Assembly: GCA_001785985.1 (NCBI GenBank)
Contig: MFVE01000005.1
Span: 178,533 to 231,770, forward strand
DNA: 53,238 nucleotides
Direction of reading: 5' to 3'
Origin: Candidatus Nomurabacteria bacterium RIFCSPLOWO2_01_FULL_42_17
GTDB lineage: Bacteria > Patescibacteriota > Minisyncoccia > Phycocordibacterales > UBA9973
Positions 13,035 to 27,163 of the stretch are shown here, piece by piece. A model generated the notes under the pieces. That model saw only the letters and a list, made by a program, of their open reading frames with translations. It was not told the origin of the DNA and did not search any database. How positions within the stretch are numbered: position 1 is the first letter of the stretch; each line of letters begins with the position of its first letter. The translations under genes and the position numbers were made by a program.

Positions 13035-13065
13035 CTCAAATAAAAATCTGTGATTTTTATTTGAG
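13035..13065. terminator. 13-bp hairpin between convergent jag and the T4SS-like operon
   Basis: CTCAAATAAAAAT-ctgtg-ATTTTTATTTGAG. Overlaps the stop of the 443-aa minus-strand gene. A second 12-bp palindrome (12981-13004) overlaps the jag stop. Confidence 0.45.
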
Positions 13066-14388
13066 ATCCAGTTTCCAAAGCAAAGAATCTTTTTTGTTTA
13101 CAAAAAATAAGTAATTTTCATCCCCTTCTAGCGCTAGTTTTATGCCGTCAATTTCTTCTCCGGTGATGACTGGATCTGAGATTATCGTTCCATTTCCTGT
13201 TTTAATGTCTATCTTCCAAAGCTGGTCAGAGAAAGATATTTCCCCCCGATACCAAGCGTCTGGATATTCATTCGGGCTAATTGATTTTGGCACTGCGCAG
13301 TAGATACTATCACTTCCCTTCCCCCAGACACATTTCTCTGGCAGAGTTTTGAATCCTAGTACATCAGAATTTCTCGTATCGGTGTGATAAACGCTCAATG
13401 ACAAATTATTATCGCTATAAAGAATTAATTTTCCGTTCGGACTTCCCAAGGTGATCAATCCATTTACTTCGCCTAATACTTTCGTTAGATTTTTACCAGC
13501 TCCGTCCATGCTGTACATATACCCTCCGACATTCGCCGATGGTTTGGTCGTGAGAGTGATGGTATTGCTCGCTCCCCAGAATGAGAGCCATTCTGTAAAA
13601 GGAGAATCAAATATTTGGATTTTTTTATTATTCAAAAAGCTTAAAGTTGTTCCAAACATATTGTCCCCGCTGGTGAACAAATAGAACATTTTTGAAGTAT
13701 CGGGTGAGATGCTGATATCTGTTACATTGTTAGGCAAAAAAGATCCCTTTATTTCGTTATCTCCGGTTGTATCTCCTCCTAGCAATTCTTTTGGAAGAAC
13801 ACCGACAAAAGTCTCGATCGTTCTCTCGTCGGGTTTTAAATAACGCATGACTATAGCTTGACCGCGATTGCCAAAATAGGCATCATATACCTTCGGTATA
13901 ATTGTTCCGGAGAATTGTCTCTCTTCTATCTTGTCCGCGAACGTTTGATAAATATTTCCAGTTGCCCTGTCTACGTACCGGAGAGCGGGTGCAAATTCAG
14001 TCGGAGGTGGAGTCGGCTTTTTTGTTCCGACGCTTGCAGTTGTCTCTCCCGAGGTCCCCGCCTCTATAGGTGTCGGAGTCGGCAGATCCTTTAATCTTTC
14101 CTTGCTAAAGACAGTGAACCCGGCTACGGGCATGCTGGAAACCTGCACTAATTTATTTACAGGTGTTTCCGCGGGAGCAGGGGTAAATTCGGATGTATTA
14201 TCTTCTGGCGTGGTTGTGGGAGGGGTTGTTTTATTGCTTCCAAATGGGTTGAATTGCGAGATGAAATTTGTACCTGTTCCTTCATCTGTCGGCGCAGTTG
14301 TTCCGGAACGGAAATATAAAAATCCAAAAACCGAAATTACTGCCAGACTCAAGATGATTATTAAAAGTATGAGATTTCTTTTTGACAT
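13057..14388 (-). CDS. membrane-anchored secreted protein, unknown function (Thr/Pro-rich linker + beta-rich, propeller-like C-terminal domain); last gene of the T4SS-like operon
   Basis: 443 aa with an N-terminal TM (LILLIIILSLAVISVFGFLYF), then TPPTTTPEDN and PTPTP linkers. No recognisable catalytic motif. Confidence 0.6.
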   Translation of the reverse strand: MSKRNLILLIIILSLAVISVFGFLYFRSGTTAPTDEGTGTNFISQFNPFGSNKTTPPTTTPEDNTSEFTPAPAETPVNKLVQVSSMPVAGFTVFSKERLKDLPTPTPIEAGTSGETTASVGTKKPTPPPTEFAPALRYVDRATGNIYQTFADKIEERQFSGTIIPKVYDAYFGNRGQAIVMRYLKPDERTIETFVGVLPKELLGGDTTGDNEIKGSFLPNNVTDISISPDTSKMFYLFTSGDNMFGTTLSFLNNKKIQIFDSPFTEWLSFWGASNTITLTTKPSANVGGYMYSMDGAGKNLTKVLGEVNGLITLGSPNGKLILYSDNNLSLSVYHTDTRNSDVLGFKTLPEKCVWGKGSDSIYCAVPKSISPNEYPDAWYRGEISFSDQLWKIDIKTGNGTIISDPVITGEEIDGIKLALEGDENYLFFVNKKDSLLWKLDLK

Positions 14389-14400
14389 AAAATAAATTTA

Positions 14401-15117
14401 TTATGGGCTAGGACTTGGTGTTGTTGCTGGTGCGGGAGCAGTTGCCGGTATAGTTGCATCACTTTTCAGCAGGTCTGGATTTATGGTGAAGAGCAGCGCG
14501 TAGGCGCCAAGGGCTATGACTAGACCGATGAGCGCATTTACAATCCTATCTTTGCCCGCTTCTTTGCTTGAGATCAATTCACTAGTCATATATTCGAGTC
14601 CCCCCATAACAATCATAACCACCGACAAGACTGCGCAGATGCCGATAAATATTTTTATCATCAGATTCAAATAAGATCCTAATCCACTTGCGGTGTTAAT
14701 CGCGGTTAATTTGCCATTCTCACAACCTGGATCCTTGCCTGTCTCACAAGGCAGTGGTGTCAAAAGTTGATAGGACGTATTTGTTTTAGCTGGTGGATTC
14801 GTTCCTGCACCTGTGCTTGTACTCGTGGCTGGGGCCAATGTTGCCCCCCCACCGCTATATCCGGAAGCGCCCGGAGCCACCTGTCTCTTATCGTTGCAAG
14901 GTGGATTTGTAGCAACTCCATTTCTGTAAATACAATCTGGTGAGCTGGGGGTGGCACCCTTTGTACTAAAATCCGCGACACAGGGTGAATTTGTCGGTAC
15001 GCCATATCTATAGACGCAAGGTTCATTCGGGTTTGCTGGGGATGCAGTCACTTCCATTGTCGGACTAAAAATTCCGACCAAGGCAATTATTATTAAAATA
15101 TATTTTATGTGTTTCAT
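14401..15117 (-). CDS. type IV secretion system pilin-like protein (TrbC/VirB2-type, CPR T4SS_pilin family)
   Basis: 238 aa with a signal peptide and two Cys-rich repeats (PCVYRYGVPTNSPC / PDCIYRNGVATNPPC). Two C-terminal TM helices are separated by a short charged loop (LNLMIKIFIGICAVLSVVMIVMGG...IVNALIGLVIALGAYALLF), the VirB2/TrbC topology. Confidence 0.65.
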   Translation of the reverse strand: MKHIKYILIIIALVGIFSPTMEVTASPANPNEPCVYRYGVPTNSPCVADFSTKGATPSSPDCIYRNGVATNPPCNDKRQVAPGASGYSGGGATLAPATSTSTGAGTNPPAKTNTSYQLLTPLPCETGKDPGCENGKLTAINTASGLGSYLNLMIKIFIGICAVLSVVMIVMGGLEYMTSELISSKEAGKDRIVNALIGLVIALGAYALLFTINPDLLKSDATIPATAPAPATTPSPSP

Positions 15118-16086
15118 TTAAAATTCTACCTCTATTTCTTTGGTGGCTGTTTGGAAAATTTTGTCCCTGTTTTTTATTTCTAATTTCAATTTCGATGTTC
15201 CATGTGTTCTCTCGGGTGCTGATATTGGCATCAGATTTTTCTTGAAACTGGTTAAATTTACCAAAGCATCATTGATGAACCAGCTCCAGATCAATGCCGG
15301 GTTTTGTAATTCTTTTGGGGAAATAAAATAAGGGGCGGCTTCCACTATTTCTGGCCCTTGTATTTTATAAGTGTCGGGCAGTATTCTATCCCAGAGAGTT
15401 CCGAGGATGCTGTCGTTTTTGTAAAATAATATTTTAGGCTCTGCCATTGCTATGTCTATACCTGCCTCGGAGGAATATTTCTGGTCTACAGTTGAGGCTG
15501 TCACCGATATATTGTTTGCATCTTCTAAATAATCATTAGTGAAAAGAAAAGAATTTTTACCATAGCCTGAACCATCTACACTATTTGTATAATCTTTTTT
15601 CCAATAGTAGGTCATATTTTTAGGAGAAACATTCCCGGAACTGGTCCTGATCTCAGGTATCGCTACCACCTTCACCTCGCTATCAGGAGAGGGTAAAGCT
15701 TTGCCACGGTAAAAAGGCGGAACATATGAATCGTTTGCTTGCCAAAGCAAGACCATCACAGAAGGCTTGATCAGTATGGTGGTGTCCGTCGTTCCCTCCG
15801 GCAGATATACGAGGGCTACAACTTTTGTCTCCCCTCCCGCTCCCGGCGCAGTAGCAGAAAAGGATTTTTTTCCTATTCCTTCCGAAACAGTTTTACCGTT
15901 CACGGACCAAGAGATGAGGACGCTGTCTAAATTGTCGACAAAACTGCTCAAAGTAATAGCTACATTTTCATAGGGAGCTGGATTAGGAGGTGCTATGTTT
16001 ACTGAGATGTTAGTAGACGGAATAGCATTCGCTGTTGTTCCACACAGCAGGAATGTCGCAATCAATAATGAAAGTTTTAATTTCAT
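15118..16086 (-). CDS. secreted protein, unknown function
   Basis: 322 aa with signal peptide MKLKLSLLIATFLLCGTTANA. Its stop abuts the pilin start, suggesting translational coupling. Confidence 0.6.
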   Translation of the reverse strand: MKLKLSLLIATFLLCGTTANAIPSTNISVNIAPPNPAPYENVAITLSSFVDNLDSVLISWSVNGKTVSEGIGKKSFSATAPGAGGETKVVALVYLPEGTTDTTILIKPSVMVLLWQANDSYVPPFYRGKALPSPDSEVKVVAIPEIRTSSGNVSPKNMTYYWKKDYTNSVDGSGYGKNSFLFTNDYLEDANNISVTASTVDQKYSSEAGIDIAMAEPKILFYKNDSILGTLWDRILPDTYKIQGPEIVEAAPYFISPKELQNPALIWSWFINDALVNLTSFKKNLMPISAPERTHGTSKLKLEIKNRDKIFQTATKEIEVEF

Positions 16087-16092
16087 ACTTAA

Positions 16093-16101
16093 ATTATAGC
16101 A
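16093..16101 (-). promoter_or_regulatory. internal extended -10 promoter (TGcTATAAT) for the secreted-protein/pilin sub-operon
   Basis: On the minus strand: TGCTATAAT, then ttaagt (6 nt), then ATG 16086. Confidence 0.5.
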
Positions 16102-16110
16102 CTTATTTTT

Positions 16111-16133
16111 ACTTTATGAACTTTATAACTTTT
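16111..16133. repeat. 23-nt dispersed repeat ACTTTATGAACTTTATAACTTTT (copy 1)
   Basis: Identical 23-mer also at 28025-28047. Both copies lie just upstream of minus-strand start codons. Confidence 0.8.
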
Positions 16134-16135
16134 TA

Positions 16136-16168
16136 CTCCCAGATAGCGCCTAAAGCGCTATCTGGGAG
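16136..16168 (-). other. perfect 14-bp hairpin overlapping the virB4 stop codon (attenuator or processing site candidate)
   Basis: CTCCCAGATAGCGC-ctaaa-GCGCTATCTGGGAG. No U-tract follows it on the transcribed strand. Confidence 0.5.
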
Positions 16169-18020
16169 CTGTCTGGGCCGCTTCCTGCTCTTCCTTGGCT
16201 TTTTTGTTAGAAAGTATTTGGGAAGGGTCAGAGGTGATGATCTGATCTTCGGTATAAGAAGCGATGATTTTTATCGCAACGTGCTTCAAGCCTGCGAAGA
16301 ATATGCCTTCTCCGACCGAGGATTCCAAGAGAAGATATTTTTCCTCGTCTGTCAGATTAAAGGTTTTCTGTAAGATGTCGATAGTGGTCGGAGATTGTTT
16401 CAAGAGAAGCTGAATGGAAGAGTTGGTGATGATCGGCACTCCATATGGTGACTTCATAAAGTCTGCCGCATCTTGGGTGATGGTGGAAAGTCCCAAGTAA
16501 TATTTTCGGCCTCTTTTGGCGATAGAGTACAAAAATGAGGCTGTATCTTCGGATTTCATCATCCACCAAGCCTCATCGACTACTAGCAGGCGCTTTTTCA
16601 AGTTCTTGCGTATCGCATTCCAGATGTAATGCATGATGATATACATCGCAACCGGTTTCAATTCATCTTCCATGTCGCGCACAGAAAAGACTACAAACTT
16701 TTTATTGATATCCACATTACTTGGACGGTTTAAAAAAGTTTCCCAAGAACCTTTGGTGTATTTTGCCAAGCGAGCGACGACGGAGTCGCTCCCATCCATT
16801 CCAGAAAGCACCATTTCAAAATCCGAAAGGAGCGGAGGCTCGATATTTGAGAAATCCGATTCCGGAGTGATGTCTTTGATGGCGTAGGTTTCAGAAATAG
16901 CGCGGTCTACCATGGAATCTTCTTCCGGAGTGAGTCCTCCCAGCATCAGTCTAAAAAGTCCGACTAGATTAATTGTGTTTGATCGTAAAACATCTTCGGC
17001 TGTCTCGTCTTCTCTGGGTATTGGCAGATCAAAAGGGTTCATATGGTGGTCTGAAGAAAGAGAAATGCTAAAATATCTTCCACCCACAGCTTCCGCTAGG
17101 AATTCATATTCCCTCTCCGGGTCGATGACGATCACATCCACATCAAACATCAGAGATCGGAGGATTTCCAATTTTGTCGCATAAGATTTTCCCGAGCCTG
17201 ATTTTGCGAAAGTTACCGAATTATAATTTTCCAGAGAAAATCGGTCGAAAATAACTAAACTGGAATTATGTCTATTGATGCCATAAAGGATGCCTTTATC
17301 CGAAGTGAGGTCAAAAGATATAAATGGAAAGACACTAGAGAGCGGCTCGGAATTTAATTTTTGGTGGATATTTAAGAGGTCAGTATTTATCGGAATGACA
17401 CTCTTGAAACCGTCTTCTTGTTGGAAGAGCGCTGGTTTGATGTATATTAGTTTTGATTCCAGCATTGATTTTATTTCATTTTCAATTTTGAAAAGCTCCA
17501 ATTCGTTGTCTGCATAGATGGTGATATAAATCCCCACATCAAACATTTTTTCCTGCGCTTGGATCAAGTTGTCGCGCAGTCCCTCGAGGTCTTGATAAGA
17601 GGTGTCCAGCATCGGATCGCGGACCATACCCTTGCTCTCACGCACGTTTATCTGGCTTTGCACTTCCGCCACCTTTTTTTGGAATTGTCTCAGCATCAGG
17701 GAAGTGTCTATCGGGTGGATAAAAATCGAAATATCAAAAACCTTGTCCAAATTAATGATCGGCGAGAACCAATTGTCAGTCAAAAATCTCGGATAAGAGA
17801 TGATAAAAAATGTACGCGCGATTTTATCGCCCAAATTTATGGATTTTGGTTCAATTTTGAGCGCGGAAGGCGCTATGATATCTTGCAGTTCCAGACTGGC
17901 GGATTCATAGATCGCTTCTGGTAATACGGGAGAAATGGAGGCCTCCGCTTCAGGGGCGTAGGTGTTTCCCCTACTTACCTTTGGTATATTATTTTTTTTA
18001 AATTTATCAAAAATACTCAT
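16158..18020 (-). CDS. virB4: VirB4/TrbE-family type IV secretion ATPase (ATPase portion)
   Basis: 620 aa with Walker A FAKSGSGKSYATK and Walker B RLLVVDEAWWMM. Has VirB4-like C-terminal motifs (GLSTITQDAADF). Confidence 0.85.
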   Translation of the reverse strand: MSIFDKFKKNNIPKVSRGNTYAPEAEASISPVLPEAIYESASLELQDIIAPSALKIEPKSINLGDKIARTFFIISYPRFLTDNWFSPIINLDKVFDISIFIHPIDTSLMLRQFQKKVAEVQSQINVRESKGMVRDPMLDTSYQDLEGLRDNLIQAQEKMFDVGIYITIYADNELELFKIENEIKSMLESKLIYIKPALFQQEDGFKSVIPINTDLLNIHQKLNSEPLSSVFPFISFDLTSDKGILYGINRHNSSLVIFDRFSLENYNSVTFAKSGSGKSYATKLEILRSLMFDVDVIVIDPEREYEFLAEAVGGRYFSISLSSDHHMNPFDLPIPREDETAEDVLRSNTINLVGLFRLMLGGLTPEEDSMVDRAISETYAIKDITPESDFSNIEPPLLSDFEMVLSGMDGSDSVVARLAKYTKGSWETFLNRPSNVDINKKFVVFSVRDMEDELKPVAMYIIMHYIWNAIRKNLKKRLLVVDEAWWMMKSEDTASFLYSIAKRGRKYYLGLSTITQDAADFMKSPYGVPIITNSSIQLLLKQSPTTIDILQKTFNLTDEEKYLLLESSVGEGIFFAGLKHVAIKIIASYTEDQIITSDPSQILSNKKAKEEQEAAQTAPR

Positions 18021-18032
18021 ATATATGTTTAT

Positions 18033-18671: not shown

Positions 18672-18675
18672 ATAT

Positions 18676-19101
18676 TTAATTTTCTTTGTGTTTACTCAAA
18701 TCTAAAACATCCAGGCTCCAAGCTAAATCTCGTAATTTGTTTCCGCCCAGCCGGACTGTTTCTCTATTCATAATATTTTTTTCGTTTGTCTCTTTTTCTG
18801 GTTCCTTCTGGCTCTTTTTTTCTCTGCTTTTTTTCCAAATATAAAGCTTGCTCTGAGTCAGATAATTAAACCCCGCCTCGATCATATTGATGAATGGCTT
18901 GTTGTTTGGCCGATAGCGAGCCAGCGCTATGGACAGCCCCGCAACAGCTAAGATAGGTATCGCGCCCCATACGAGTCCGAGCAGTTTGTAAATTATAAAA
19001 CAAAGACCTGCGCCACCCACTAAATAAACAAACTCTTTAAAAGTGAATGGGCCAAAGATCTTGTCTTCTATATCTAAAAATTGTGGAACTTTGAATTGCA
19101 T
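18676..19101 (-). CDS. PrgI-family (VirB3-like) membrane protein
   Basis: 141 aa. MQFKVPQFLDIEDKIFGPFTFKEFVYLVGGAGLCFIIY is the PrgI N-terminal signature, with two TM helices. Confidence 0.7.
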   Translation of the reverse strand: MQFKVPQFLDIEDKIFGPFTFKEFVYLVGGAGLCFIIYKLLGLVWGAIPILAVAGLSIALARYRPNNKPFINMIEAGFNYLTQSKLYIWKKSREKKSQKEPEKETNEKNIMNRETVRLGGNKLRDLAWSLDVLDLSKHKEN

Positions 19102-19111
19102 AAATAGCTTT

Positions 19112-19492
19112 TTAGCTGCTTAGCTTTTTAGCTTGTAGCTTATTAAGCATGGCATTCAACATTTTCATAACTTCTTCTAATAAAGAATCTATCTTATTAT
19201 AATCTAATTTTATAGTTTTAGGTAATTTTCTGGCTATTATCAGTTGGGTCTCCAGTTCAGCGCCAGATCCGTAAGACATTCTTAAAAAGTGCAGATAATC
19301 AGCCCTAGTTCCTCTACGCCTACCTTCTGCGATGTTAGATGGTATAGAGACCACAGATCTTCTAATTTGCGATGTTAATCCATAAATTTCCTCTCTTGGA
19401 AATTTTTCTGTCAGTTCATACACGCATATTACTAACTCAATTGATTTTTGCCAAACAATTAAATCTTTATATGAATGTATTATCTCGTTCAT
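19112..19492 (-). CDS. four-helix-bundle protein (23S rRNA intervening-sequence protein / Avd-like family)
   Basis: 126 aa. YKDLIVWQKSIELV...TSQIRRSVVSIPSNIAEGRRRGTRADYLHFLRMSYGSGAELETQLIIA is the family signature. The C-terminal KLQAKKLSS is encoded by the flanking repeat. Confidence 0.85.
   Translation of the reverse strand: MNEIIHSYKDLIVWQKSIELVICVYELTEKFPREEIYGLTSQIRRSVVSIPSNIAEGRRRGTRADYLHFLRMSYGSGAELETQLIIARKLPKTIKLDYNKIDSLLEEVMKMLNAMLNKLQAKKLSS
19121..19140. repeat. left arm of 20-nt inverted repeat (19/20) enclosing the four-helix-bundle gene
   Basis: TAGCTTTTTAGCTTGTAGCT. Its partner lies at 19514-19533. Embedded in AGCT-N3-5 periodic tracts. Confidence 0.8.
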
Positions 19493-19513
19493 TTTATAAG
19501 CTAATTAGCTACC

Positions 19514-19533
19514 AGCTACAAGCTAATAAGCTA
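19514..19533. repeat. right arm of 20-nt inverted repeat enclosing the four-helix-bundle gene
   Basis: AGCTACAAGCTAATAAGCTA, the reverse complement of the left arm with one mismatch. Confidence 0.8.
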
Positions 19534-20586
19534 TTCAGGTATTTCTCTGTATGGGTCTACTTTTGGCTTTTGGGGTATGGGCAGACTTGCTTCGTTTGCT
19601 GGCCTTGTCAGATTTTCCAATGAGTGTTCAGTTTTGGTTACGCCTGTCTGCACAGAGCCAGATAATTTTTCTACTAAGATCGGATGAACTGCTTCCGGTT
19701 TTTCTATTTTGTTTAATATATCTTCCCTATTCTCTGGTATCTTTCCCGCTTCCAGCTCTAATTGTTGTAATCTTTGGGGGATGATCTCAATGCCGGCCGT
19801 ATTTAATACTTTGGTGTCGCTATTCCCCTCTTGAGGGGTGCTCCGACCAAAGTCGGAGTGGGGTGGATAAGTTTGTCCACCTCCCCCTGAAGGGTACTCC
19901 TCAAGAGGAGAATTCCCTCTCGGAGTATTCATCAGCTTTAATAATTCACGAATCTTCAAAAATATTTTTTCGTTTATGTCTTTGACTAATTTTCCAACTG
20001 TTTCTGATGGCACTTTCAGATCACTCTTTAAATAATTTTCAAATTCATCTGGATGAGTCTTGCCGATTATTAGATCAGTAATTGCTTTTTCCAGAATATC
20101 CATCTGAGCGACAGTTAAGTTATATCCCTTGGCGATATCGTAAAGTATTGCCTGATAATTTGATTTTTTGACAATATCTTCAATTCCTTTTGGAAATTTT
20201 TCGAAACTCCCATTCAATTTTTGTTCAATCTCTGGCACTTGCTCTATCTCTCCTTTTTTATTTGCTTCAAATGCTTCAACTAGTTGAGGGCGAATGGTTT
20301 TTATAATGGACTCCTCTATTTCCATGAGCATTTTATCTGTAGAATCTACTGACAATTTCAACTCATTAGTTATATTTTCTTCGTATTCAACTAAATGAAT
20401 AATACCTAGAAGGACCAAGGTTGTTTCTGTGCCGAGCGTTTCTATTTGCTCATCGTTTAGATTATATTTCTGGCTGATTGTTTTTAAGGTTTCCAGCCAA
20501 CCCATACTCGAAAACATTTCTTGCACTTTTTGTGGAAGTTTTGAATAATATAAAGCTATTTTTTCTTGTAATTCTTTTTGGTCCAT
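19531..20586 (-). CDS. cytoplasmic protein of unknown function (two tandem helical domains), carries an in-frame repeat-element insertion
   Basis: 351 aa with no TM or signal peptide. Two similar ~90-aa helical modules, and a Gly/Pro-rich insert at the element position. Confidence 0.55.
   Translation of the reverse strand: MDQKELQEKIALYYSKLPQKVQEMFSSMGWLETLKTISQKYNLNDEQIETLGTETTLVLLGIIHLVEYEENITNELKLSVDSTDKMLMEIEESIIKTIRPQLVEAFEANKKGEIEQVPEIEQKLNGSFEKFPKGIEDIVKKSNYQAILYDIAKGYNLTVAQMDILEKAITDLIIGKTHPDEFENYLKSDLKVPSETVGKLVKDINEKIFLKIRELLKLMNTPRGNSPLEEYPSGGGGQTYPPHSDFGRSTPQEGNSDTKVLNTAGIEIIPQRLQQLELEAGKIPENREDILNKIEKPEAVHPILVEKLSGSVQTGVTKTEHSLENLTRPANEASLPIPQKPKVDPYREIPE
19823..19914 (-). mobile_element. 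92-nt palindromic MITE/RPE-like element, copy 1 (in frame inside a CDS)
   Basis: The 14-nt terminal inverted repeat is TTCCCCTCTTGAGG...CCTCAAGAGGAGAA. Shares 18-nt 5' and 22-nt 3' identical blocks plus the GGGGTGGATA..TCCACCTCCCC core with 44599-44684. Confidence 0.7.
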
Positions 20587-20596
20587 AAATTATATT

Positions 20597-22906
20597 CTAA
20601 TGATGTCCTCCGCCACTGGTACCATGATCTACTTTTGCTTCTGCGTGACTACTACCTCCTCCACTACCTGCACTTACATTTATTTTAACATTTTTTAATG
20701 CACCACCTATTGTGTCCTTGAGATCTTTTATAAAATCTCCTTGCGGGGTACCATGCTGTACGCCCCCCTGTTTCAGTCCTGCTCTTATTCCCAATGCTAC
20801 AGCAGTGATAAGTCCAACAGTAGCCTTGGTACTCAACCCCTCTCTCTTGTCTGCTTTTATATTAGCTAGATTTCTTGCGTCATAAGTGCCACTGGTTGAT
20901 CTAGCCATCACCCTTGTTCCCATTCCTACTTTTTCTTGGGCTTCATGTTGCAGTTCACTATATTTTGCTTCTCCGAGCACCTTTGCTAACTCTCTTAGGC
21001 GCTCATTAAACTCTGTATTTAACCTATCTTCAACCTTCTTTTGTCCTTGGTCATTAAGATTACCTGCACCGTCTATAGAATTAGGATCAGCAATTTTTAC
21101 TTCACTTATGATATCCTGACGTCTTTTGGCCTTGTAATCATTTTCACCGGTTGCATTAATAGTATTTCCATTTATATCTCTTTCAATAACTACAGGTTTT
21201 CCTTTGGCGTCATATCCTTTTCTTATTTCAGACTCAATCTCAGATCTCTTATCTTTAGTATAAGCGGTCTTCATCCTTTCTTTATCTACACCGGAAAGAT
21301 ACTTATCATCCAATCCCTCCACTCCAATTTTTTTCTTAATTTCATCCATCTCATGTCTAGCATGCGCCACATCACCTGACTTCCATTGATTCTCATTTAT
21401 CTTTGAACCCAGTTGGCCCATAAGACTAGTTGGTTTTGGAGGAACAATTGGTGGTGCTCCCACTCTACCTCCGTGCTCCCATTTTTTGTATTCAAAAGTA
21501 GCTTTTCCATGAGCCATGGCATCTGGTCGCGTTGAAGCTTTAGCCGCAGTTCTGGCAATCAGGGTTCTACCAACTACAGCTCCACCCAAAGCAGCACCAC
21601 CGACAGCTAGACCAGCGACTAATTTTGCTCCACCTAACACCATTTCCCCAAACTGTCCTCCTCCTTTCTTGGCGAAATGAGTTGCTTTCAGAAGCATCGC
21701 CATGATTACTAATGCTGGTATTAATATACCCAAAATGATTCCCAACGTTGTTAATACCGGTTTCCCATCTGCTCCCAAAACCCCCTTATTAAATTTACCT
21801 ATATGAGGCAAAAGCATAAATATTAAATACATAAAGAACATAAAGATTGGCGCCATAAATGAGGTGGAAATCAAACGTTTCAACCAAGCATCCCATCCTA
21901 GATATTCAATACCTGCGAACTTTGGAATAGTCCAAGACATAAAAGCAAACGGAGAGAAAATAATTAATATCCATAATTCAATTAATCTTCCTATAAACAT
22001 GATCCCAGCGATAAAAAATGCATAAGCTGCCCAAAGCATGATTGATCCGGAGATGACTATCATTCCTATCGTAAAACTAAATGGCAGGTATTTTTCGTTT
22101 GTTGGTACCATTTTTCCGTCGACGAGCACGGGTTGATTTTTCAATGCTTCGATGGTTTCTCCATTTATTAATCTAGTGGCATCAAAAGTTTTCCACATCT
22201 CGCCAGCTATATCTTTTTCTTCTTTAGGCCTCGATGGATCAGTTGGTGTTATTGGATTAACTTTCAGCTTATTATAAAACACTAAAGCCAAAATATTTGA
22301 AGAATCAATCACTACCTTTGTAAAAAACATAGAAAAGTTTATCAATAGCGCCATGATTACGACATGCACTATCATTTTTTTCACTTCATGTCCTCCCAGA
22401 TTCAAGATTGTTTTAATGGCAATATAAAGGAGTACGAGAATGAAGAAAATATTTGAAATATCTCGGACGACTGCCCAGGCAGCGGGAATAAAACCAGAAG
22501 CACGCGTCAAAGCGCTGTCTATTCCCAGATTTATCATTGCATTAAAAAACCACGCCGCGACCCAAAGAATCATGGCAGGAAGTTGAAAATAGGTCCAGTA
22601 AAATATTAGCGCTATACACATCCCCCAACTTCCAGCTCTCCAAATACTGCAAGTGTTTAGTTCTTGTTCAAACGCTGTGTCTGTTGATAATCCTTCTGCC
22701 GCTCTTGCTGTTGCATCCGCTTTTTCTGCTGCTTTTACTAATTCTTTTGCAGCCTCGTCTGCTTTTTCTTGGGGTGTTTTTTCTGGCGGCGTAGCTGGTT
22801 GCGTTGGTGGTGGCGGTGGAACTGTCTGCGCGTTCACTTTCGCCGCCGGGCTAAAAAATCCGACTAGGATAAAGAATATTAGGATATATGGTAAGAATTT
22901 TCTCAT
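20597..22906 (-). CDS. large polytopic membrane protein, VirB6/TrbL-like candidate
   Basis: 769 aa with a signal peptide and Pro-rich segment, many TM helices across aa ~90-450, and a charged, Gly-rich C-terminal tail ending GGGSSHAEAKVDHGTSGGGHH. Confidence 0.5.
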   Translation of the reverse strand: MRKFLPYILIFFILVGFFSPAAKVNAQTVPPPPPTQPATPPEKTPQEKADEAAKELVKAAEKADATARAAEGLSTDTAFEQELNTCSIWRAGSWGMCIALIFYWTYFQLPAMILWVAAWFFNAMINLGIDSALTRASGFIPAAWAVVRDISNIFFILVLLYIAIKTILNLGGHEVKKMIVHVVIMALLINFSMFFTKVVIDSSNILALVFYNKLKVNPITPTDPSRPKEEKDIAGEMWKTFDATRLINGETIEALKNQPVLVDGKMVPTNEKYLPFSFTIGMIVISGSIMLWAAYAFFIAGIMFIGRLIELWILIIFSPFAFMSWTIPKFAGIEYLGWDAWLKRLISTSFMAPIFMFFMYLIFMLLPHIGKFNKGVLGADGKPVLTTLGIILGILIPALVIMAMLLKATHFAKKGGGQFGEMVLGGAKLVAGLAVGGAALGGAVVGRTLIARTAAKASTRPDAMAHGKATFEYKKWEHGGRVGAPPIVPPKPTSLMGQLGSKINENQWKSGDVAHARHEMDEIKKKIGVEGLDDKYLSGVDKERMKTAYTKDKRSEIESEIRKGYDAKGKPVVIERDINGNTINATGENDYKAKRRQDIISEVKIADPNSIDGAGNLNDQGQKKVEDRLNTEFNERLRELAKVLGEAKYSELQHEAQEKVGMGTRVMARSTSGTYDARNLANIKADKREGLSTKATVGLITAVALGIRAGLKQGGVQHGTPQGDFIKDLKDTIGGALKNVKINVSAGSGGGSSHAEAKVDHGTSGGGHH

Positions 22907-25116
22907 CTATTGACTCTAATATTAACTCTCACGGTTTGAGGGTTGGTCGTGGATGAATCTTTGATCGTGAGATACGTCGCGCCGTCGTTCGTGCCGGCAG
23001 TGACCCTTAAAGTATTTCCAGATATTTGCGCAGTGGCTCTGCCAGATCTAGGCTGGGTCACGATAGTGTAAGGCGCCGTCGCTCCAGAGATGCTAGCAGT
23101 GGCCGTCTGGCCGTAACTCACGGAAATATTTGGCGGGCTGATCGTCAAGAATTCCTGATTGCTTACCACAATGTTGACGCTCGCTATCTTGATCGGCGTG
23201 GATGAATCTTTTATTACAATTACTATTTGTCCATCTCCGACTCCAGTGACTGCGAGGTTACTGCCTGAAATTTGGACAACTGCCACAGTCGGATCAACCG
23301 AAGTTTCTATAATATAGGGCGCGGTTCCGCCGGATATGATCGTGTTTGTAGTGCTTCCCACACTAGCGGAAACTCTTGGTTCGATGACTAGAGCTTCTGG
23401 GCCACTGATCGTGATAGGCACGATGACGATCTTTGGCGGCGTGGAAGAATCTCTGATCGCGAGCGCTGTCTGGCCCACTGCTACGCCCATCACAACCAAG
23501 CTAGTATCGGCGAAGACGGCTACCGCTTTCGATTCGTCCGGGCCGGCTTGCATAAAGTAAGGTTCTTGGCCGCCAGAAATGGATGCGTTTATTGAATTGT
23601 TGACAGCAATTGAAATACTGCGAGGATTTACCACCAAAGCCCCGATCGAATTTACTGTGATATCGATGGAGACATTCTTTGAAGGCGTGGATGAATCTCT
23701 AACCACCACGAAAGTCTGACCCGGAGCGATACCTTTGATTGTGAGAATTGGGTTTCCAGGACCGGCATAAGAGATCTGGGCCATGGCGACAGCAGTATTG
23801 GGCTGTGTCGTTATGACGTAAGGTGCCGCCCCGCCTAAAATAGGAGTGCCAGTTATTTCGCCGACAGTGACGGAAACATTTTGCGGTATGTTTAGATTTG
23901 TTGTTCCGCTGATTGGTGCAGTCCCGCCACCGAGAGTGTTGCCATCATAACTCCAATTGTCTCCCCCGGATGCTCGGCTCACAGTACTGGAAAGCGCGTT
24001 CAGGCCTTTGTCCAAGAAGTGATTTAAGAGCGCATCAAAAATAGCCGACAAACTATTACCCATTGCCGCCGCGAGCTCTGTCTGCCTAAAACTTGACCCC
24101 ATGGCCATCATTATTTGATTTGCCGCTACCGAACCCGGAGTGGTATTGACCAATCCGCCCGGACAAGTGTTTGACTCTGCCCACCTTCTTTTTTCCATCG
24201 CCACTGCTGTATTATAGTTTGCATTATATTCATCTATTTCCGCTTGGGATGTCGCAGTATATTCTGGAGCAACATATTCTATCGAAGGTTTAAAACTAGG
24301 TCTACGAAATTCATTTACGCCGTTGTTATAAAGTGAATTGGTTGGACAAGTTTGCGGAGACAAAAATCCGCTTCCTTGCTGTAGAAGGCTTTGGATTCTC
24401 TGGGCTGGCGCTTGGATTGTTCCCTCCAATCTGCTTGCTAGATTTTGCTGGATCAACATGTCAAATCCCAGATAATTATTTTGCGGATACTGGGTGTTTA
24501 TTAGAAATGCGTTCCATCCCCCGACGTTGAAATCATTCCTGTATTGGACCAAGAGGTCTGGATCATTGATCACTTTCGAGAGGGTGTATTGCGCATTGTT
24601 TGCCAGAGTGTTTTTGAAGTTGGAGATCACATTGAGCGCGCTTTGCTGGCCGAAAGGGTACCTCAAACTGTCATAGCCGATCATGTCTACCAGATTCCTG
24701 ACTTCGGATTTGGCTATGTCTTTGAAAAAAGATTCGGGATTTTCCAAGAAAAGCGGCGCCCCGTGAAAATCAGAGTTTATCCAATTTATGGTGGCTTGAG
24801 TTATTCTAGCCAAGACTTGTTTTGCCACTCGCATCAGGATTTCGCGAAGCAAAAACTGCGCAAAGTCTTTGATATGCAGGCCTGTATCTTGTACCGTGGA
24901 ACCCGAGGTTATCACGTGAAGTGCTTGAGACAGCCAGCCAGCGGTCTCAGCAGGTATATCCGCGACGGGAACCGATGTCGCTGCGGTACTTCCCGCCGCC
25001 ACCGCCGATGCTTTCTGAGGGATAGACAATAAAACGCTCGGCAATAATATTGAAACAATCAAGAGAGCAGGAATGAATTGCTTTGTTTTTTCTTTGGTTT
25101 TATTTTTAGCCGTCAT
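22903..25116 (-). CDS. secreted surface protein: unknown ~400-aa N-terminal domain + 4 tandem Ig-like (~75 aa) repeats
   Basis: 737 aa with an N-terminal TM/signal. Four repeats of the pattern SGG.APY.I...P..A.A.IS...L.V.G...G......I.DSSTP.K.....I.V (DNA ~22906-23850). Confidence 0.6.
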   Translation of the reverse strand: MTAKNKTKEKTKQFIPALLIVSILLPSVLLSIPQKASAVAAGSTAATSVPVADIPAETAGWLSQALHVITSGSTVQDTGLHIKDFAQFLLREILMRVAKQVLARITQATINWINSDFHGAPLFLENPESFFKDIAKSEVRNLVDMIGYDSLRYPFGQQSALNVISNFKNTLANNAQYTLSKVINDPDLLVQYRNDFNVGGWNAFLINTQYPQNNYLGFDMLIQQNLASRLEGTIQAPAQRIQSLLQQGSGFLSPQTCPTNSLYNNGVNEFRRPSFKPSIEYVAPEYTATSQAEIDEYNANYNTAVAMEKRRWAESNTCPGGLVNTTPGSVAANQIMMAMGSSFRQTELAAAMGNSLSAIFDALLNHFLDKGLNALSSTVSRASGGDNWSYDGNTLGGGTAPISGTTNLNIPQNVSVTVGEITGTPILGGAAPYVITTQPNTAVAMAQISYAGPGNPILTIKGIAPGQTFVVVRDSSTPSKNVSIDITVNSIGALVVNPRSISIAVNNSINASISGGQEPYFMQAGPDESKAVAVFADTSLVVMGVAVGQTALAIRDSSTPPKIVIVPITISGPEALVIEPRVSASVGSTTNTIISGGTAPYIIETSVDPTVAVVQISGSNLAVTGVGDGQIVIVIKDSSTPIKIASVNIVVSNQEFLTISPPNISVSYGQTATASISGATAPYTIVTQPRSGRATAQISGNTLRVTAGTNDGATYLTIKDSSTTNPQTVRVNIRVNR

Positions 25117-25143
25117 TTTGTTATTTATTATATGATTTTTCCT

Positions 25144-26028
25144 TTAATTACTCAATTTTTGGTTGATGGCGTTTGCCAAATTGTTCAGATCTGTCTCCAG
25201 CTGGTCGGCACTTGCTTGATATCTGCTTATACCACCTAGCGCCATGATAGCGTCGGTGTCGTAAAGTTTTATATCGCTTATATTTTCCGCCAATCTTTCA
25301 AGCGAATTTATGACATTCAGATGCAAGGTCGAAATAGCTTGGGGCACGCTCATCTTCATCATTCCTTCTATTATTTTATTTGTTTGGGATATGATCGGAT
25401 CAAGTTTCAGGAGCACGCTCGTATCCACACTGTTTTCATCAACCATAAATTTCTGCAATACATCCAATATTGTATAGTTTACCCCCGGATATTTTTTATA
25501 AAGGCTGGTCAAGGCATTGTTATAATTTCTGAAAGCTGAAACACTATTGTCATTTATTATTTTTATGTCAAAAATTGAATATATCTTTCTCGGTACAGAA
25601 TTTTGTATCTGCTCTGAAAGGGAATTGCCCAGTGCGTCTATAGTCGCTTGGTCTAAAGTTCCATTTTGGCTGGTGGCCGCGATAGTCGCAAAAAGTTCCC
25701 TGGAGAATTTATCTGTTTGGGTTAGCTTTACATCGCCCAATTCTTGTTTCTCGACCGAGGCGGATCCGCCTTGAGCGGATAATTTGCTGATGGCTACGCT
25801 GTCCGGCACTCCCGGAGTTGTTTCTTTTTTATTCGGATCAGTTCCCCATAGTCCCTCTTCCCAATCCAGTATGCCATCGTCATCAGTATCCTTGTTTACT
25901 AAATTTTCTATAGTTACATCGCCATAAATCAAACTATTTTCTCCCCCGTTCTGCGCGAGCTTGGAACCATTTTCAAATGTAGTTTTATTTTTTAAGAAAA
26001 AAAGAACAACAACAAAAATAATCGCCAA
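25144..26028 (-). CDS. membrane-anchored protein of unknown function with thrombospondin-type-3-like Ca-binding motif; first gene of the T4SS-like operon
   Basis: 294 aa from TTG 26028. Contains the DTDDDGILDWEEGLWGTDP motif. The reading frame stays open 16 more codons upstream without a canonical start. Confidence 0.55.
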   Translation of the reverse strand: MAIIFVVVLFFLKNKTTFENGSKLAQNGGENSLIYGDVTIENLVNKDTDDDGILDWEEGLWGTDPNKKETTPGVPDSVAISKLSAQGGSASVEKQELGDVKLTQTDKFSRELFATIAATSQNGTLDQATIDALGNSLSEQIQNSVPRKIYSIFDIKIINDNSVSAFRNYNNALTSLYKKYPGVNYTILDVLQKFMVDENSVDTSVLLKLDPIISQTNKIIEGMMKMSVPQAISTLHLNVINSLERLAENISDIKLYDTDAIMALGGISRYQASADQLETDLNNLANAINQKLSN

Positions 26029-26146
26029 AACGATCCAAAGCGTCTTTTTGTATTTTGCTAAAATCTTTTTAATTATGGTCTAATTGTACCATAGGTAAAT
26101 AAATTTGCTTGTTTATTATCCCCATTTTTTGTTATACTTAATTCCG

Positions 26147-27163
26147 ATGAAAAGATTGCTATATTTGTTTATTTTTTCTACCCTTTTATTTTATTCGAAT
26201 GCTGTTTTCTCAGCGGACTGCGAGCTGGTTAGCCTTTTAAAAGTAGGTTCTAAAGGTTCGGAAGTTCAATGCTTGCAAGGAAAAGTAGGCGCCGCAATGG
26301 ATGGGAGCTTTGGTCCTTTGACTCGGGCGGCGGTTGTGGCTTTTCAATCCAGTCATGGATTAGTGCCGGATGGCATAGTCGGACCGTTGTCCCGTTCGGC
26401 ACTCAACAATATTACGCTTAGTGGTAGTAGCGGCGGTGTTTCCGCTATAAATCCTCTCGAAGGTTGTATCTCAACCTTAGAATACAGCCCAAAAACTGGC
26501 ATCAAATGCGATAGTCTAATAAATCCAACGCCGGCAGGTCCCTCTACTAGCACAACTCCACCTCCAGGCAGTACAAATAGTACGACGACCAATACAGCAA
26601 AAGTAAGCGCAAATCTTGTGAATTTAGATCAATTTATTGCGAAGGTTGTCGAAGTGAATAGAAAAAGTGGCATGAGCGAGTCGGATATTGAACGGATGGT
26701 TGAAGTGCTAAAAAATGAAGCTATCAACAGCAATATTGATCTTAATAAAACATTCAAAGAACTGCTTATTAGTGAAAGTCAGCTAAGTCTAGATTCTGAC
26801 GCCAAGCCCTCATCGAATTTTTTTGATAAAATTATTGCTGAGACTCTTTCTTTTTTAGGCATTAAACCTTCTACAGCCCATGCCACTAGCGGTATACCCT
26901 TTGGCGGCGCTTTGATTTATTCTTTTTTCTGCGCATATAACGGCAGCTGGATGTTGGGCATAGAGCCTTTTCCGCCGAGTTTTGCGGTACTTCTCACTTA
27001 TTATCCCGGCACCCAAGGATTTGCCAGCTACAATATACCTTTCACTACTTGGTTGCTTGGAGAATATGTGACGCCCGGCGTCTGCATGATACCTGGTACT
27101 CCTGTTTATAGTATACCCACTGAAGGCACGATCACTCCATTGGTCGGTTCATCTCCTTCGTAA
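26147..27163 (+). CDS. secreted peptidoglycan-binding (PG_binding_1) protein with unknown C-terminal domain
   Basis: From ATG 26147: MKRLLYLFIFSTLLFYSNAVFS signal peptide, then GSKGSEVQCLQ...FGPLTRAAVVAFQSSHGLVPDGIVG. Divergent from the T4SS-like operon. 3' end overlaps rsmA by 32 nt. Confidence 0.7.
   Translation: MKRLLYLFIFSTLLFYSNAVFSADCELVSLLKVGSKGSEVQCLQGKVGAAMDGSFGPLTRAAVVAFQSSHGLVPDGIVGPLSRSALNNITLSGSSGGVSAINPLEGCISTLEYSPKTGIKCDSLINPTPAGPSTSTTPPPGSTNSTTTNTAKVSANLVNLDQFIAKVVEVNRKSGMSESDIERMVEVLKNEAINSNIDLNKTFKELLISESQLSLDSDAKPSSNFFDKIIAETLSFLGIKPSTAHATSGIPFGGALIYSFFCAYNGSWMLGIEPFPPSFAVLLTYYPGTQGFASYNIPFTTWLLGEYVTPGVCMIPGTPVYSIPTEGTITPLVGSSPS

Follow-up and report, generated by a model that had tools for sequence, protein, structure and literature searches.

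The window that we analysed, a stretch of 53,238 nucleotides, contains an operon of 11 minus-strand ORFs that share one orientation (26028->13057) with intergenic spacing of -4 to 71 nt. An earlier note on this DNA had described eleven co-oriented, tightly packed genes, and the ORF list agrees with its coordinates and shows every operon ORF to be intact. The inventory in that note, however, named only ten proteins and left out the eleventh, the gene for a PF05635 IVS protein (Table 1). The operon is flanked by ksgA on one side and by jag/yidC/rnpA/dnaA on the other; its neighbours in the window are housekeeping genes and the GC content shows no step at its borders.

Table 1. Features of the type IV secretion operon and two further genes of the window
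Feature	Position	Strand	Description
294 aa	25144-26028	-	first operon gene
737 aa	22903-25116	-	N-anchored surface protein, Ig-like repeats
769 aa	20597-22906	-	polytopic membrane protein, VirB6-type candidate
351 aa	19531-20586	-	predicted cytoplasmic protein
126 aa	ORF 19112-19492, cassette 19113..19541	-	'23S rRNA IVS protein', PF05635
141 aa	18676-19101	-	PrgI/VirB3-like, PF12666
212 aa	18033-18671	-	TrsD-type, VirB4 N-terminal domain as separate ORF
620 aa	16158-18020	-	VirB4 ATPase, PF19044 + conju_CD1110
322 aa	15118-16086	-	secreted, predicted three tandem Ig/FnIII-like domains
238 aa	14401-15117	-	VirB2-type pilin, PF18895
443 aa	13057-14388	-	last operon gene, N-anchored, beta-rich C-terminal domain
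PG_binding_1 protein	26147-27163	divergent from operon	PG_binding_1 (E = 1.9e-9)
Tyrosine recombinase	44325-45341		XerC/D domain layout; 18 kb from operon, amid housekeeping genes

The gene-neighbourhood comparison across Patescibacteria that the earlier note had proposed revealed a shared collinear order, ksgA-294-737-VirB6-351-PrgI-TrsD-VirB4-322-pilin-443-jag-yidC, in as many as 80 Paceibacteria species. Among 80 related loci, many of which end at contig ends, the TrsD-type gene was found in all 80, the PrgI gene in 77, the 322-aa gene in 75, the 443-aa gene in 71, the VirB6-like gene in 64, the 351-aa gene in 58, the 737-aa gene in 43 and the 294-aa gene in 35. With the whole order collinear in related species, a gene order beyond chance is confirmed. 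VirB4 is 75-93% identical across about 80 Paceibacteria species whereas identity drops to 30-80% for the neighbouring Jag and YidC. The five operon proteins without a T4SS family keep their order relative to virB4 in as many as 80 species and therefore belong to the system, the opposite of the outcome that the earlier note had named as fatal to its proposal. The operon is genuine and strongly conserved, and it represents a chromosomal type IV secretion system of an ultrasmall member of the Paceibacteria (CPR).

The VirB4 ATPase, recognised in the earlier note by its GSGKS and VVDEAWW motifs, matches PF19044 in Pfam (E = 6.9e-26) and NCBIfam conju_CD1110 above the cut-off (368 bits, cut-off 325), and both motifs are intact (Walker A at residues 275-279, Walker B at 480-486). 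It shares 25% identity with PrgJ of pCF10 (E = 7e-42), and our search for a close mobile-element relative found none, the closest plasmid-borne VirB4 being 35.5% identical. VirB4 is the predicted motor of the system. The separate VirB4 N-domain ORF was likewise borne out as a member of the TrsD family by NCBIfam (TrsD, E = 2.5e-7; N-part of VirB4_plasma, E = 5.2e-10; conju_CD1110 at positions 2-104). It has a precomputed PF26593 TraC-like assignment and shares 30% identity with the ORF that precedes virB4 in Pontibacillus (E = 5e-26). The PrgI/VirB3-like protein also stood, scoring 28.7 bits against Pfam PrgI (E = 2e-6, gathering score 27); it has two transmembrane segments within residues 27-61 and is predicted to anchor VirB4 at the membrane.

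Hydropathy gives the 769-aa protein some 8-10 hydrophobic segments within residues 96-440, and the protein also has the long hydrophilic C-terminal extension of an 'extended VirB6'. In an alignment of the window protein and 40 orthologues, 11 of the 41 sequences matched MMCAP2_0566, a Mycoplasma-ICE family of NCBIfam (best E = 6e-9; window protein, E = 5.8e-4), six matched Mbov_0396 and two CD3337/EF1877, while Pfam TrbL matched neither the window protein nor any of the 40 orthologues. The RAAC4_OD1_1 orthologue is catalogued as T_virB6 in the published list. The VirB6-like assignment of the earlier note is weakly supported, with a modest E-value and no TrbL match for the window protein itself, and the protein is a candidate VirB6-type channel subunit.

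The pilin has a signal peptide, a Cys-rich N-terminal part, a transmembrane hairpin at residues 152-210 and a short Pro/Thr tail, in keeping with the TrbC/VirB2 topology previously claimed for it. The window copy falls under the Pfam gathering score for T4SS_pilin (E = 1.9e-4, 21.9 bits against 26.6), yet 62 of 72 syntenic orthologues match this family (best E = 4.7e-10; five match TrbC). With a local HMM the window pilin scored 132 bits and proved to be the only copy there. Only 24 aa follow its hairpin, whereas 58 of the 66 sequences in which a hairpin could be mapped have a tail of more than 100 aa. Across the 72 aligned sequences, the heads recognised by Pfam included NlpC/P60 (12), VanY/M15 (12), YkuD (5), Amidase_5 (4) and SLT (3) domains, and the head type varies between species whose VirB4 proteins are at least 90% identical. 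These domain matches point to a new feature of the system, swappable C-terminal peptidoglycan-hydrolase heads on most pilin orthologues. The pilins of the window and of its closest relative, L001, are headless, so that in the window's organism, whose copy has no hydrolase head, the pilin cannot be what cuts the wall.

The accessory set consists of five conserved, lineage-specific proteins, four extracytoplasmic and one cytoplasmic. None matched a T4SS family, and PDB profile and Foldseek searches revealed no likeness to VirB8, VirB9 or VirB10 among them. The earlier note had called the five undescribed, in agreement with the published table for RAAC4_OD1_1, where the orthologous genes are left unassigned (the 351-aa orthologue is gene 532). 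The 294-aa protein is N-terminally anchored and extracytoplasmic, and its DxDxDG-type motif proved to be a TSP3-type Ca-binding repeat, DTDDDGILDWEE, with TSP3_bac matching 9 of 32 aligned sequences (window protein and 31 orthologues; best E = 1.8e-9). A C-terminal domain is also present, and a PDB profile search matched nothing in the protein besides the TSP3 stretch. Its ORF has an in-frame upstream extension, KKILAKYKKTLWIVLAIIFVVVLFFL, and the true start is probably a non-ATG codon upstream, near 26060. The 737-aa protein has a transmembrane segment at residues 14-32 and a conserved all-alpha N-domain of ~390 aa, for which the AF2 model was poor (pLDDT 60.9) and Foldseek on that model gave no match. 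The four Ig-like repeats of ~80 aa that follow, as read earlier, are visible in the C-terminal sequence; they compare with Ig-like or Hoc-like PDB chains at E = 0.007-0.05, and the 437 homologues, all hypothetical, carry PF13629, PF26182 or PF13573 on the repeats. For the 351-aa protein, topology prediction gave neither a transmembrane segment nor a signal peptide, consistent with its labelling as cytoplasmic. Its N-terminal domain of ~220 aa is conserved and its middle part variable, and at the C-terminus a D-P-Y motif is invariant in the family alignment (D344, P345, Y346); its family spans 1933 clusters at 50% identity (E <= 1e-3) and has no relative in Pfam, NCBIfam or PDB searches.

The secreted nature of the 322-aa protein is supported by a signal peptide (residues 1-24, disordered in the AF2 model; pLDDT 81.5, pTM 0.60). 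The model predicts three tandem Ig/FnIII-like beta-sandwich domains, which is a new assignment for this protein; Foldseek returned generic Ig-repeat proteins only (TM <= 0.35). Pfam, NCBIfam and PDB searches found no sequence relative, its 682 homologues are all hypothetical, and a function as extracellular scaffold or as adhesin is possible. The 443-aa protein has a transmembrane segment at residues 6-24 and a Pro/Thr-rich linker, and its C-terminal domain is beta-rich; Cys353 and Cys364 are conserved in the family. The earlier 'propeller-like' label is weakly supported (PD40 in 4 of 69 orthologues, E ~0.003; TolB in PDB, E = 0.06), and the beta-rich domain is possibly a TolB-like propeller. 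The roles proposed for the five proteins are based on synteny, topology and generic folds. A wall and host-surface theme recurs in the pilin heads of relatives, the PG_binding_1 inserts of 443-aa orthologues (6 of 69) and the Ig-like 322-aa and 737-aa proteins.

The 126-aa protein (PF05635, E = 5.6e-37) is a bAvd-like four-helix bundle whose gene is an inserted, sporadic, stem-flanked cassette and no T4SS component. A 28-nt inverted repeat brackets the gene (arms 19113-19140 and 19514-19541, 86% complementary) and its arms pair as the closing stem in the MFE fold and in the centroid fold alike (z -3.0). Of 80 loci, 12 have the gene, inserted at any of three operon positions, and in 11 of these its flanks are complementary. 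The divergent PG_binding_1 gene is real, but its proposed role as a wall-remodelling partner did not hold, since just 4 of 80 loci have the gene.

Our Pfam scan covered 37 window ORFs (every further ORF of 110 aa or more being <230 aa, and ORFs <110 aa were catalogued within 11000-30000) and found among them no relaxase, T4CP, VirB11 or VirB8/9/10, as had been claimed for the window. That an episymbiotic CPR bacterium carries here a chromosomal T4SS-like machine without a role in conjugation is supported by the protein families, the synteny and the housekeeping neighbours. However, the system is neither orphan nor novel. It was described by McLean 2020, Wang 2023 and Quinonero-Coronel 2025, and the relaxase absence, the pilin and the proximity to dnaA/ksgA/rnpA are also published (PMC12102498, PMC10633639, PMC7427843, PMC12857230), with origin proximity remarked in PMC12102498. 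The published order in RAAC4_OD1_1 is VirB6-x-VirB3-TrsD-VirB4-x-VirB2, and the table of Quinonero-Coronel 2025 shows an identical gene order for an orthologous genome, likewise leaving the five genes without assignment. Publications of 2020-2025 already cover the system, along with its non-conjugative and origin-proximal character, and the remaining unassigned part is the five accessory proteins only. A new observation is that the pilin/VirB6/VirB3/TrsD/VirB4/hydrolase core is present in a Firmicute replicon as well.

We consider it highly probable that the operon encodes a CPR T4SS lineage derived from monoderm MPF-FATA conjugation machinery, now non-conjugative and most likely devoted to macromolecule transport between epibiont and host. 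Its conjugation role would since have been lost. The operon encodes VirB4 split into TrsD and ATPase body, PrgI/VirB3, the VirB6-like protein and one VirB2-type pilin, beside six more co-transcribed genes, five of them for the accessory proteins. VirB4/TrsD may dock onto a PrgI and VirB6-like channel in the single membrane and pull pilin out of it to form a short pilus or conduit across the cell wall. The Ig-like, TSP3 and propeller-like proteins, anchored or secreted, may stand in for the VirB8 and VirB7/9/10 scaffold, which is missing here, and may also establish host-cell contact. A peptidoglycan-hydrolase head on the pilin of most relatives would cut the wall, own or host's; this head has probably been lost in the window's lineage. 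The machine most likely sits at the epibiont-host interface and would move macromolecules by either import of host material or export of effectors.

It is possible that the machine imports host nucleic acids (DNA/RNA) or other macromolecules through its pilus or channel, feeding an organism unable to make nucleotides, in the manner of the Helicobacter ComB T4SS or the archaeal Ced system. VirB4 shows a weak match to the DNA-import protein CedB (E = 3.5e-8), although confined to the shared P-loop region, and import requires neither the coupling protein nor the relaxase that the window lacks. Because comEC is dispensable in Southlakia, the T4SS has been proposed as a nucleotide-acquisition route (PMC11665869), and a 2026 preprint on a cultivated relative reports host-RNA feeding and tubular structures toward the host that may be T4SS pili. 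However, Pfam and NCBIfam revealed no DNA-/RNA-binding domain or nuclease in the operon, and sequence does not fix the direction of transport. It is likewise possible that the machine instead exports or displays host-directed effectors, chiefly cell-wall hydrolases, so that a headed pilin or other substrates breach the host wall. The long pilin tails, their hydrolase domains and the differing heads among species with VirB4 at least 90% identical agree with this, as do the essential lysozyme and DD-peptidase genes that adjoin virB4 in Southlakia. Yet the hydrolases could serve a VirB1 function, as does PrgK of pCF10, which opens the producer's own wall; further, the pilins of the window and L001 carry no head, and none of the genes recognised in the window looks like an effector.

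A conjugative element or an integrated ICE, with relaxase, coupling protein and oriT outside the window, is a very unlikely reading of the operon. Its VirB4 family is otherwise annotated as conjugal-transfer ATPases, T4CP-profile matches occur elsewhere in related genomes and a tyrosine recombinase is encoded in the window, but the recombinase shows an XerC/D domain layout with housekeeping genes around it (Table 1), and T4CP-like genes lie far from virB4 in published surveys (PMC12102498). The constant placement with jag/yidC on one side and ksgA on the other across as many as 80 species, the even GC content and the distance to plasmid VirB4 also argue against such an element, and relaxases were found in 103 of 3,035 genomes (3% of Patescibacteria), rarely near virB4 (PMC12102498). 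A decaying T4SS remnant without present function is exceedingly improbable. Canonical parts are missing (VirB8, VirB1, T4CP) and an unrelated cassette has entered the operon, but the ORFs and the VirB4 Walker motifs are intact, the spacing is tight and VirB4 is better conserved than the flanking genes. The homologous T4SS genes are, moreover, essential for epibiotic growth in Southlakia (PMC10633639).

The locus consists of eleven ORFs (13057-26028), all on the minus strand and spaced by -4 to 71 nt, and housekeeping genes flank it on both sides: dnaN, dnaA, rnpA, yidC and jag on one, and ksgA and uvrD, together with a gene for a PG_binding_1 protein, on the other. Used as a query against one genome per species, its VirB4 retrieved more than 580 relatives, and we compared the loci of the best 80 of these (VirB4 identity 75-93%). 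By title these are mostly Nomurabacteria, Paceibacterota, Parcubacteria and generic Patescibacteria MAGs, about one quarter of them auto-labelled 'uncultured Candidatus Saccharibacteria', which makes a Paceibacteria genome the most likely source of the window. A tblastn search with 16 window proteins recovered, wherever a contig extends, the collinear order ksgA - 294 - 737 - VirB6-like - 351 - PrgI - TrsD - VirB4 - 322 - pilin - 443 - jag - yidC, in which numbers are protein lengths in amino acids. The earlier note had staked its reading on five genes of no assigned family (294, 737, 351, 322 and 443 aa) being syntenic with virB4 in relatives, which this comparison supports; its description of the locus was borne out with three corrections.

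Features of the locus and its surroundings. The last column gives the number of the 80 related loci with the gene; contig ends truncate many of these loci.
Feature	Position	Strand	Profile match or context	Related loci
dnaN	8300-9397		origin-side flank	
dnaA	9548-10921		origin-side flank	
rnpA	11175-11528		origin-side flank	
yidC + jag	11740-12995		origin-side flank	
443-aa protein		-		71/80
VirB2-like pilin	14401-15117	-	weak T4SS_pilin match, 21.9 bits, below gathering score 26.6	73/80
322-aa protein		-		75/80
VirB4 ATPase	16158-18020	-	PF19044, 6.9e-26; NCBIfam 'VirB4-like conjugal transfer ATPase, CD1110 family'	
TrsD-type protein	18033-18671	-	NF041427 TrsD, 2.5e-7; N-terminal part of VirB4 profiles only	80/80, beside virB4
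PrgI-family protein (PrgI/VirB3)	18676-19101	-	PF12666, 28.7 bits (gathering score 27)	77/80
IVS-protein gene	19112-19492	-	'23S rRNA intervening sequence protein', PF05635, 5.6e-37	12/80
351-aa protein		-		58/80
VirB6-like protein (769 aa)		-		64/80
737-aa protein		-		43/80
294-aa protein		-		35/80
PG_binding_1 gene	26105-27163	+	far flank	4/80
ksgA	27132-28007		far flank, with PG_binding_1 gene and uvrD	
ORF, 363 aa	30094-31185	-		
ORF, 457 aa	31192-32565	-		
M23 peptidase	32737-34017	+		
M23 peptidase	38158-39018	+		
ORF, 559 aa	39030-40709	-		

The VirB4 scores 368 bits against the conju_CD1110 profile (cut-off 325) and its motifs are intact (GSGKS, residues 275-279; VVDEAWW, residues 480-486). 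Plasmid genes, all from monoderms, reach at most 35.5% identity, and Paceibacteria and Nomurabacteria MAGs 75-93%, pointing to an MPF-FATA affinity with the nearest relatives lying within the Patescibacteria. The pCF10 protein PrgJ aligns with VirB4 over 554 residues (25% identity) beginning at PrgJ residue 228, so the N-domain that VirB4 lacks corresponds to the separate TrsD ORF. The earlier note had recognized VirB4, this N-domain ORF, PrgI and the pilin correctly, while its fifth part, a VirB6-like protein, is plausible but weak. The 769-aa protein is polytopic by hydropathy, which fits VirB6 topology, and gives a weak match (5.8e-4) to MMCAP2_0566, a Mycoplasma-ICE membrane-protein family. 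Among 41 aligned sequences (the window protein and 40 orthologues), 11 match MMCAP2_0566, 6 match Mbov_0396 and 2 match the CD3337/EF1877 mobilome membrane families of NCBIfam; none of the 41 matches Pfam TrbL, and a PDB-wide profile search of the family returned no T4SS component. The orthologue in RAAC4_OD1_1 has been published as T_virB6 (PMC12102498).

The pilin is best recognized through its relatives. Positional orthologues match T4SS_pilin (PF18895) in 62 of 72 cases (best 4.7e-10) and TrbC/VirB2 in 5, and a hairpin family HMM gives the window pilin, present as a single copy in the window, 132 bits; together, orthologue matches and family HMM argue for a VirB2-like pilin near virB4. A hairpin was mapped in 66 sequences (window copy counted); past it, the C-terminal tail exceeds 100 aa in 58 and is 40 aa or shorter in only 3, the window copy among them. 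The pilin tail of the closest relative, L001, measures 54 aa and carries no enzyme domain. The window pilin, head-less like that of L001, is thus unusual within its class, where a swappable cell-wall hydrolase is usual. Pfam searches of the 72 aligned sequences identified NlpC/P60 in 12, VanY in 9 and Peptidase_M15_4 in 3, YkuD in 5, Amidase_5 in 4 and SLT in 3, and more head classes, of the H..D/HxH type, have no family assignment. By their domain content, then, the tails in relatives are predicted peptidoglycan-active domains, and head type is not constant among species with a VirB4 at least 90% identical to that of the window. Because VirB2 pilins have both termini facing outward, such a head would be extracytoplasmic.

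Database names for these fusions range from 'pilin' to 'NlpC/P60 family protein' and 'M15 family metallopeptidase', and we found no description of a pilin-hydrolase fusion in the published accounts that we consulted. Southlakia encodes its equivalent enzymes apart from the pilins, in essential genes adjoining virB4 (PMC10633639, PMC12102498). Two M23 peptidases are encoded 7-12 kb from the operon of the window, one of them with two LysM domains, and could make up for the missing hydrolase head of the pilin. For at least one listed genome, a published survey counts as 'VirB1' a LysM-domain protein encoded within a few genes of virB4 (PMC12102498).

None of the five accessory proteins has a family at E < 0.01 in Pfam or NCBIfam, and profile searches of their families against the PDB returned just a TSP3 stretch, a marginal TolB match and Ig-like repeats. 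Pfam searches of every orthologue of the VirB6-like, 351-, 294- and 443-aa proteins added no T4SS family to those named. Neither profiles from Pfam, NCBIfam and the PDB nor the models of the 322-aa protein and the 737-aa N-domain showed a likeness of the five to VirB8, VirB9, VirB10 or VirB1, and the three profile collections likewise gave no NTF2-fold VirB8-like protein and no VirB1-like hydrolase. With hhalign, the orthologue alignments had no match to single pCF10 Prg/Pcf proteins, in a comparison whose positive control (PrgI family against pCF10 PrgI) itself reached only 6.8% probability and which we therefore set aside as uninformative.

Each accessory protein nevertheless has a predicted location, and one has a confident fold. 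This is the 322-aa protein, with a signal peptide and three tandem beta-sandwich domains (AF2, pLDDT 81.5); a Foldseek search with the model returned generic Ig/FnIII repeat proteins alone and no T4SS component, and on this model the protein is Ig-like, not NTF2. In the 737-aa protein, an anchor at the N-terminus is followed by some 390 residues of conserved alpha-helical domain and then by four Ig-like repeats; the AF2 model of its N-domain is of low confidence (pLDDT 60.9) and found no Foldseek match. The 443-aa protein, previously called propeller-like, does have a beta-rich domain, following an N-terminal anchor and a Pro/Thr linker and joined in six orthologues by a PG_binding_1 insert, but its likeness to a TolB-like propeller is marginal. 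The 351-aa protein lacks both a signal peptide and any transmembrane segment, and its family is separate and large, with 1933 clusters at 50% identity. Its N-terminal 220 residues are conserved, and its C-terminus (19531-19545) ends in an Asp-Pro-Tyr that is invariant in the family alignment (consensus PKxDPYRExxE) of an otherwise fast-evolving protein, and which looks like a docking peptide.

The 294-aa protein has an N-terminal anchor and, in 9 of 32 aligned sequences, a TSP3 Ca-binding repeat (best 1.8e-9). Its annotated TTG start cuts off part of the membrane anchor; upstream of it (26028-26075, minus strand) the reading frame is still open, as KKILAKYKKTLWIVLAIIF... and TIIKKILAKYKKTLWIVL..., and offers no ATG, GTG or TTG. 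The true start is therefore probably a non-ATG codon, and the sequence suggests ATT/ATA. A promoter-like -35/-10 pair lies upstream of this gene at 26099-26072. Promoter and terminator scans of the window gave counts no higher than the shuffled expectation, and the other site noted, upstream of the 322-aa gene at 16093-16120 (-), has an extended -10 (TG) and scores 10/12, with overall promoter counts not above chance. It sits between virB4 and the 322-aa gene, where 71 nt form the one sizeable gap of the operon, and may be an internal promoter of a 322-pilin-443 sub-operon. An Rfam scan of the window found four tRNAs, all outside the operon, and nothing else.

The earlier note was right to read the locus as a non-conjugative minimal T4SS, but the system is neither orphan nor new, having already been published (PMC7427843, PMC10633639, PMC12102498). 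McLean et al. 2020 reported VirB4, VirB6 and VirB2 homologues in Saccharibacteria, including TM7x, and in other CPR (PMC7427843). Wang et al. 2023 showed by Tn-seq that Southlakia epibionticum cannot grow epibiotically without its T4SS cluster (SEML1_0006-0019), which has pilins and lacks a relaxase and a coupling protein; this requirement has been shown only in this species (PMC10633639). Quinonero-Coronel et al. 2025 surveyed 3,035 genomes and found VirB4 in 2,417, forming a monophyletic Patescibacteria clade within MPF-FATA, with TrsD, VirB3/PrgI, VirB6 and VirB2-like pilins adjoining virB4, with relaxases rare, and with the Paceibacteria cluster near dnaA, dnaN, rnpA, ksgA and rpmH (PMC12102498). 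The window shares with this clade VirB4, an adjacent TrsD, PrgI/VirB3, a VirB2-like pilin and, as a candidate, a VirB6-like protein, as well as a chromosomal cluster beside dnaA, dnaN, rnpA and ksgA that has no relaxase or T4CP.

Table S3 of the survey lists, for RAAC4_OD1_1, genes 531 (VirB6), 533 (VirB3), 534 (TrsD), 535 (VirB4) and 537 (VirB2), and its component list omits genes 532 and 536 and the flanking genes (PMC12102498). This genome is among our syntenic relatives, and the published gene order is identical to that of the window. The five accessory genes are thus not assigned in the published catalogue, which agrees with the earlier description of these partners as undescribed (PMC12102498). 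The locus is no new kind of system. What gives it value is the accessory set, which is conserved, and the pilin-hydrolase fusions of relatives, and the comparison provides the Paceibacteria, a large class, with a concrete list of conserved parts.

Other known systems resemble the locus in part. In Saccharimonadia six pilins form an array, lysozyme and DD-peptidase are encoded separately and an NTF2-like (VirB8-like) protein occurs, whereas the Paceibacteria locus of the window has one pilin and no detected NTF2-like protein. With the MPF-FATA system of pCF10 (PrgD-PrgL/PcfC) it shares a CD1110-family VirB4, a PrgI-family protein and a monoderm plan without VirB7/9/10. However, pCF10 has no pilin and includes parts that were not found in the window: a relaxase, a VirD4 coupling protein, VirB8-like PrgL/PrgD, the PrgK hydrolase and LPXTG adhesins. 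The window, for its part, has a pilin and a split VirB4. In Mycoplasma ICEs (Mbov_0395/0396/0397) the NCBIfam counterparts are the Mbov_0395 (MMCAP2_0565) family for the pilin, MMCAP2_0566 for the VirB6-like protein and Mbov_0397 for VirB4/TrsD, but these modules, unlike the window locus, sit in self-transmissible elements. The third-best match in the plasmid collection, a CD1110-family VirB4 33% identical to that of the window, is from Pontibacillus sp. ALD_SL1 (NZ_CP062975.1, 351801-361354), on an 898-kb non-mobilizable Firmicute replicon. Its cluster encodes two T4SS_pilin proteins, a TrbL-like 779-aa protein, a PrgI/TraL-like protein, a TrsD-like ORF (30% identical to that of the window, E 5e-26), VirB4 and an NlpC/P60+M23 hydrolase, which is a separate 1050-aa protein and not a pilin fusion. 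No relaxase or T4CP was found within 12 kb of it, nor any of the five accessory proteins in the cluster, so VirB2-like pilins and relaxase-less clusters are not unique to Patescibacteria among monoderms.

Neither a relaxase nor a T4CP was found among the 37 window ORFs scanned, and the cluster lies in the origin-proximal core of the chromosome. Recognition of an oriT depends on knowing the relaxase family. The signature of a mobile element is missing: the jag/yidC and ksgA flanks are constant in up to 80 species, GC content has no step at the locus borders, and the sole recombinase in the window, XerC/D-like, is 18 kb distant. In RAAC4_OD1_1, T4CP-profile matches do occur, more than 60 genes away from virB4 (PMC12102498). 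Fixed synteny, the absence of a GC step, VirB4 identities of 75-93% across species and intact motifs make a conjugative element very improbable and a dead remnant more improbable still. Helicobacter ComB and archaeal Ced are T4SS-type DNA uptake machines that work without a relaxase, and they would possibly be functional analogues if the system of the window imports host nucleic acid. The likeness has its bounds: ComB is a diderm machine with a VirB2-4 and VirB6-10 set, Ced comprises CedA/CedB without a pilin of the type found here, and VirB4 matches CedB weakly and at the P-loop level only. We regard such import as possible, though less likely than not, and give the same odds to export or display of wall-cutting effectors, a reading that the hydrolase heads of relatives bring to mind.

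Mechanistically, TrsD/VirB4 would dock onto PrgI and the VirB6-like channel and push the pilin out of the membrane to form a pilus, or else a short conduit, across the wall, with the four extracytoplasmic accessory proteins serving as a wall-spanning and host-contact scaffold and the 351-aa protein as a cytoplasmic adaptor. We tentatively hypothesize, as a composite that taken whole is more doubtful than probable, that the Paceibacteria T4SS is a distinct organelle for breaching the host wall. The pilin would be a modular carrier of interchangeable hydrolase heads (NlpC/P60, M15/VanY, YkuD, amidase, SLT and two unassigned metallopeptidase-like types) that swap between closely related species, and the head-less pilin of the window a natural loss variant. 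The five lineage-specific proteins (TSP3-anchored; alpha-domain with four Ig repeats; three Ig repeats; propeller-like; and a cytoplasmic DPY-tailed adaptor) would make up a new scaffold and host-contact complex replacing VirB8 and VirB1. Few machines have been shown to be essential to the epibiotic life of CPR bacteria; the T4SS is among them, and reviews call its role completely unknown. For the question of how ultrasmall bacteria get through a host envelope, the accessory set and the pilin heads are leads that can be tested, though the question of the transported cargo is not thereby answered.

Finally, two genes in and beside the operon are not conserved parts of the machine. The PG_binding_1 gene, proposed earlier as a dedicated wall-remodelling partner, occurs in too few of the related loci to be one; the C-terminal region of its product is Cys/Trp/Pro-rich and conserved-looking, with no family match. 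Farther out, Pfam assigns no family to the ORFs of 363, 457 and 559 aa beyond a weak treble-clef match in the last. The eleventh gene of the operon, left out of the earlier part list, encodes a 126-aa IVS protein, which we rejected as a T4SS component because it is sporadic, varies in position and is stem-flanked. A 28-nt inverted repeat brackets it (19113-19541) and forms the closing stem in the predicted RNA fold, and the stem-flanked copies in the same operon of related species occupy three different positions. An IVS-protein gene inside a flanking stem is the architecture of rRNA intervening sequences, here placed within a protein-coding operon.
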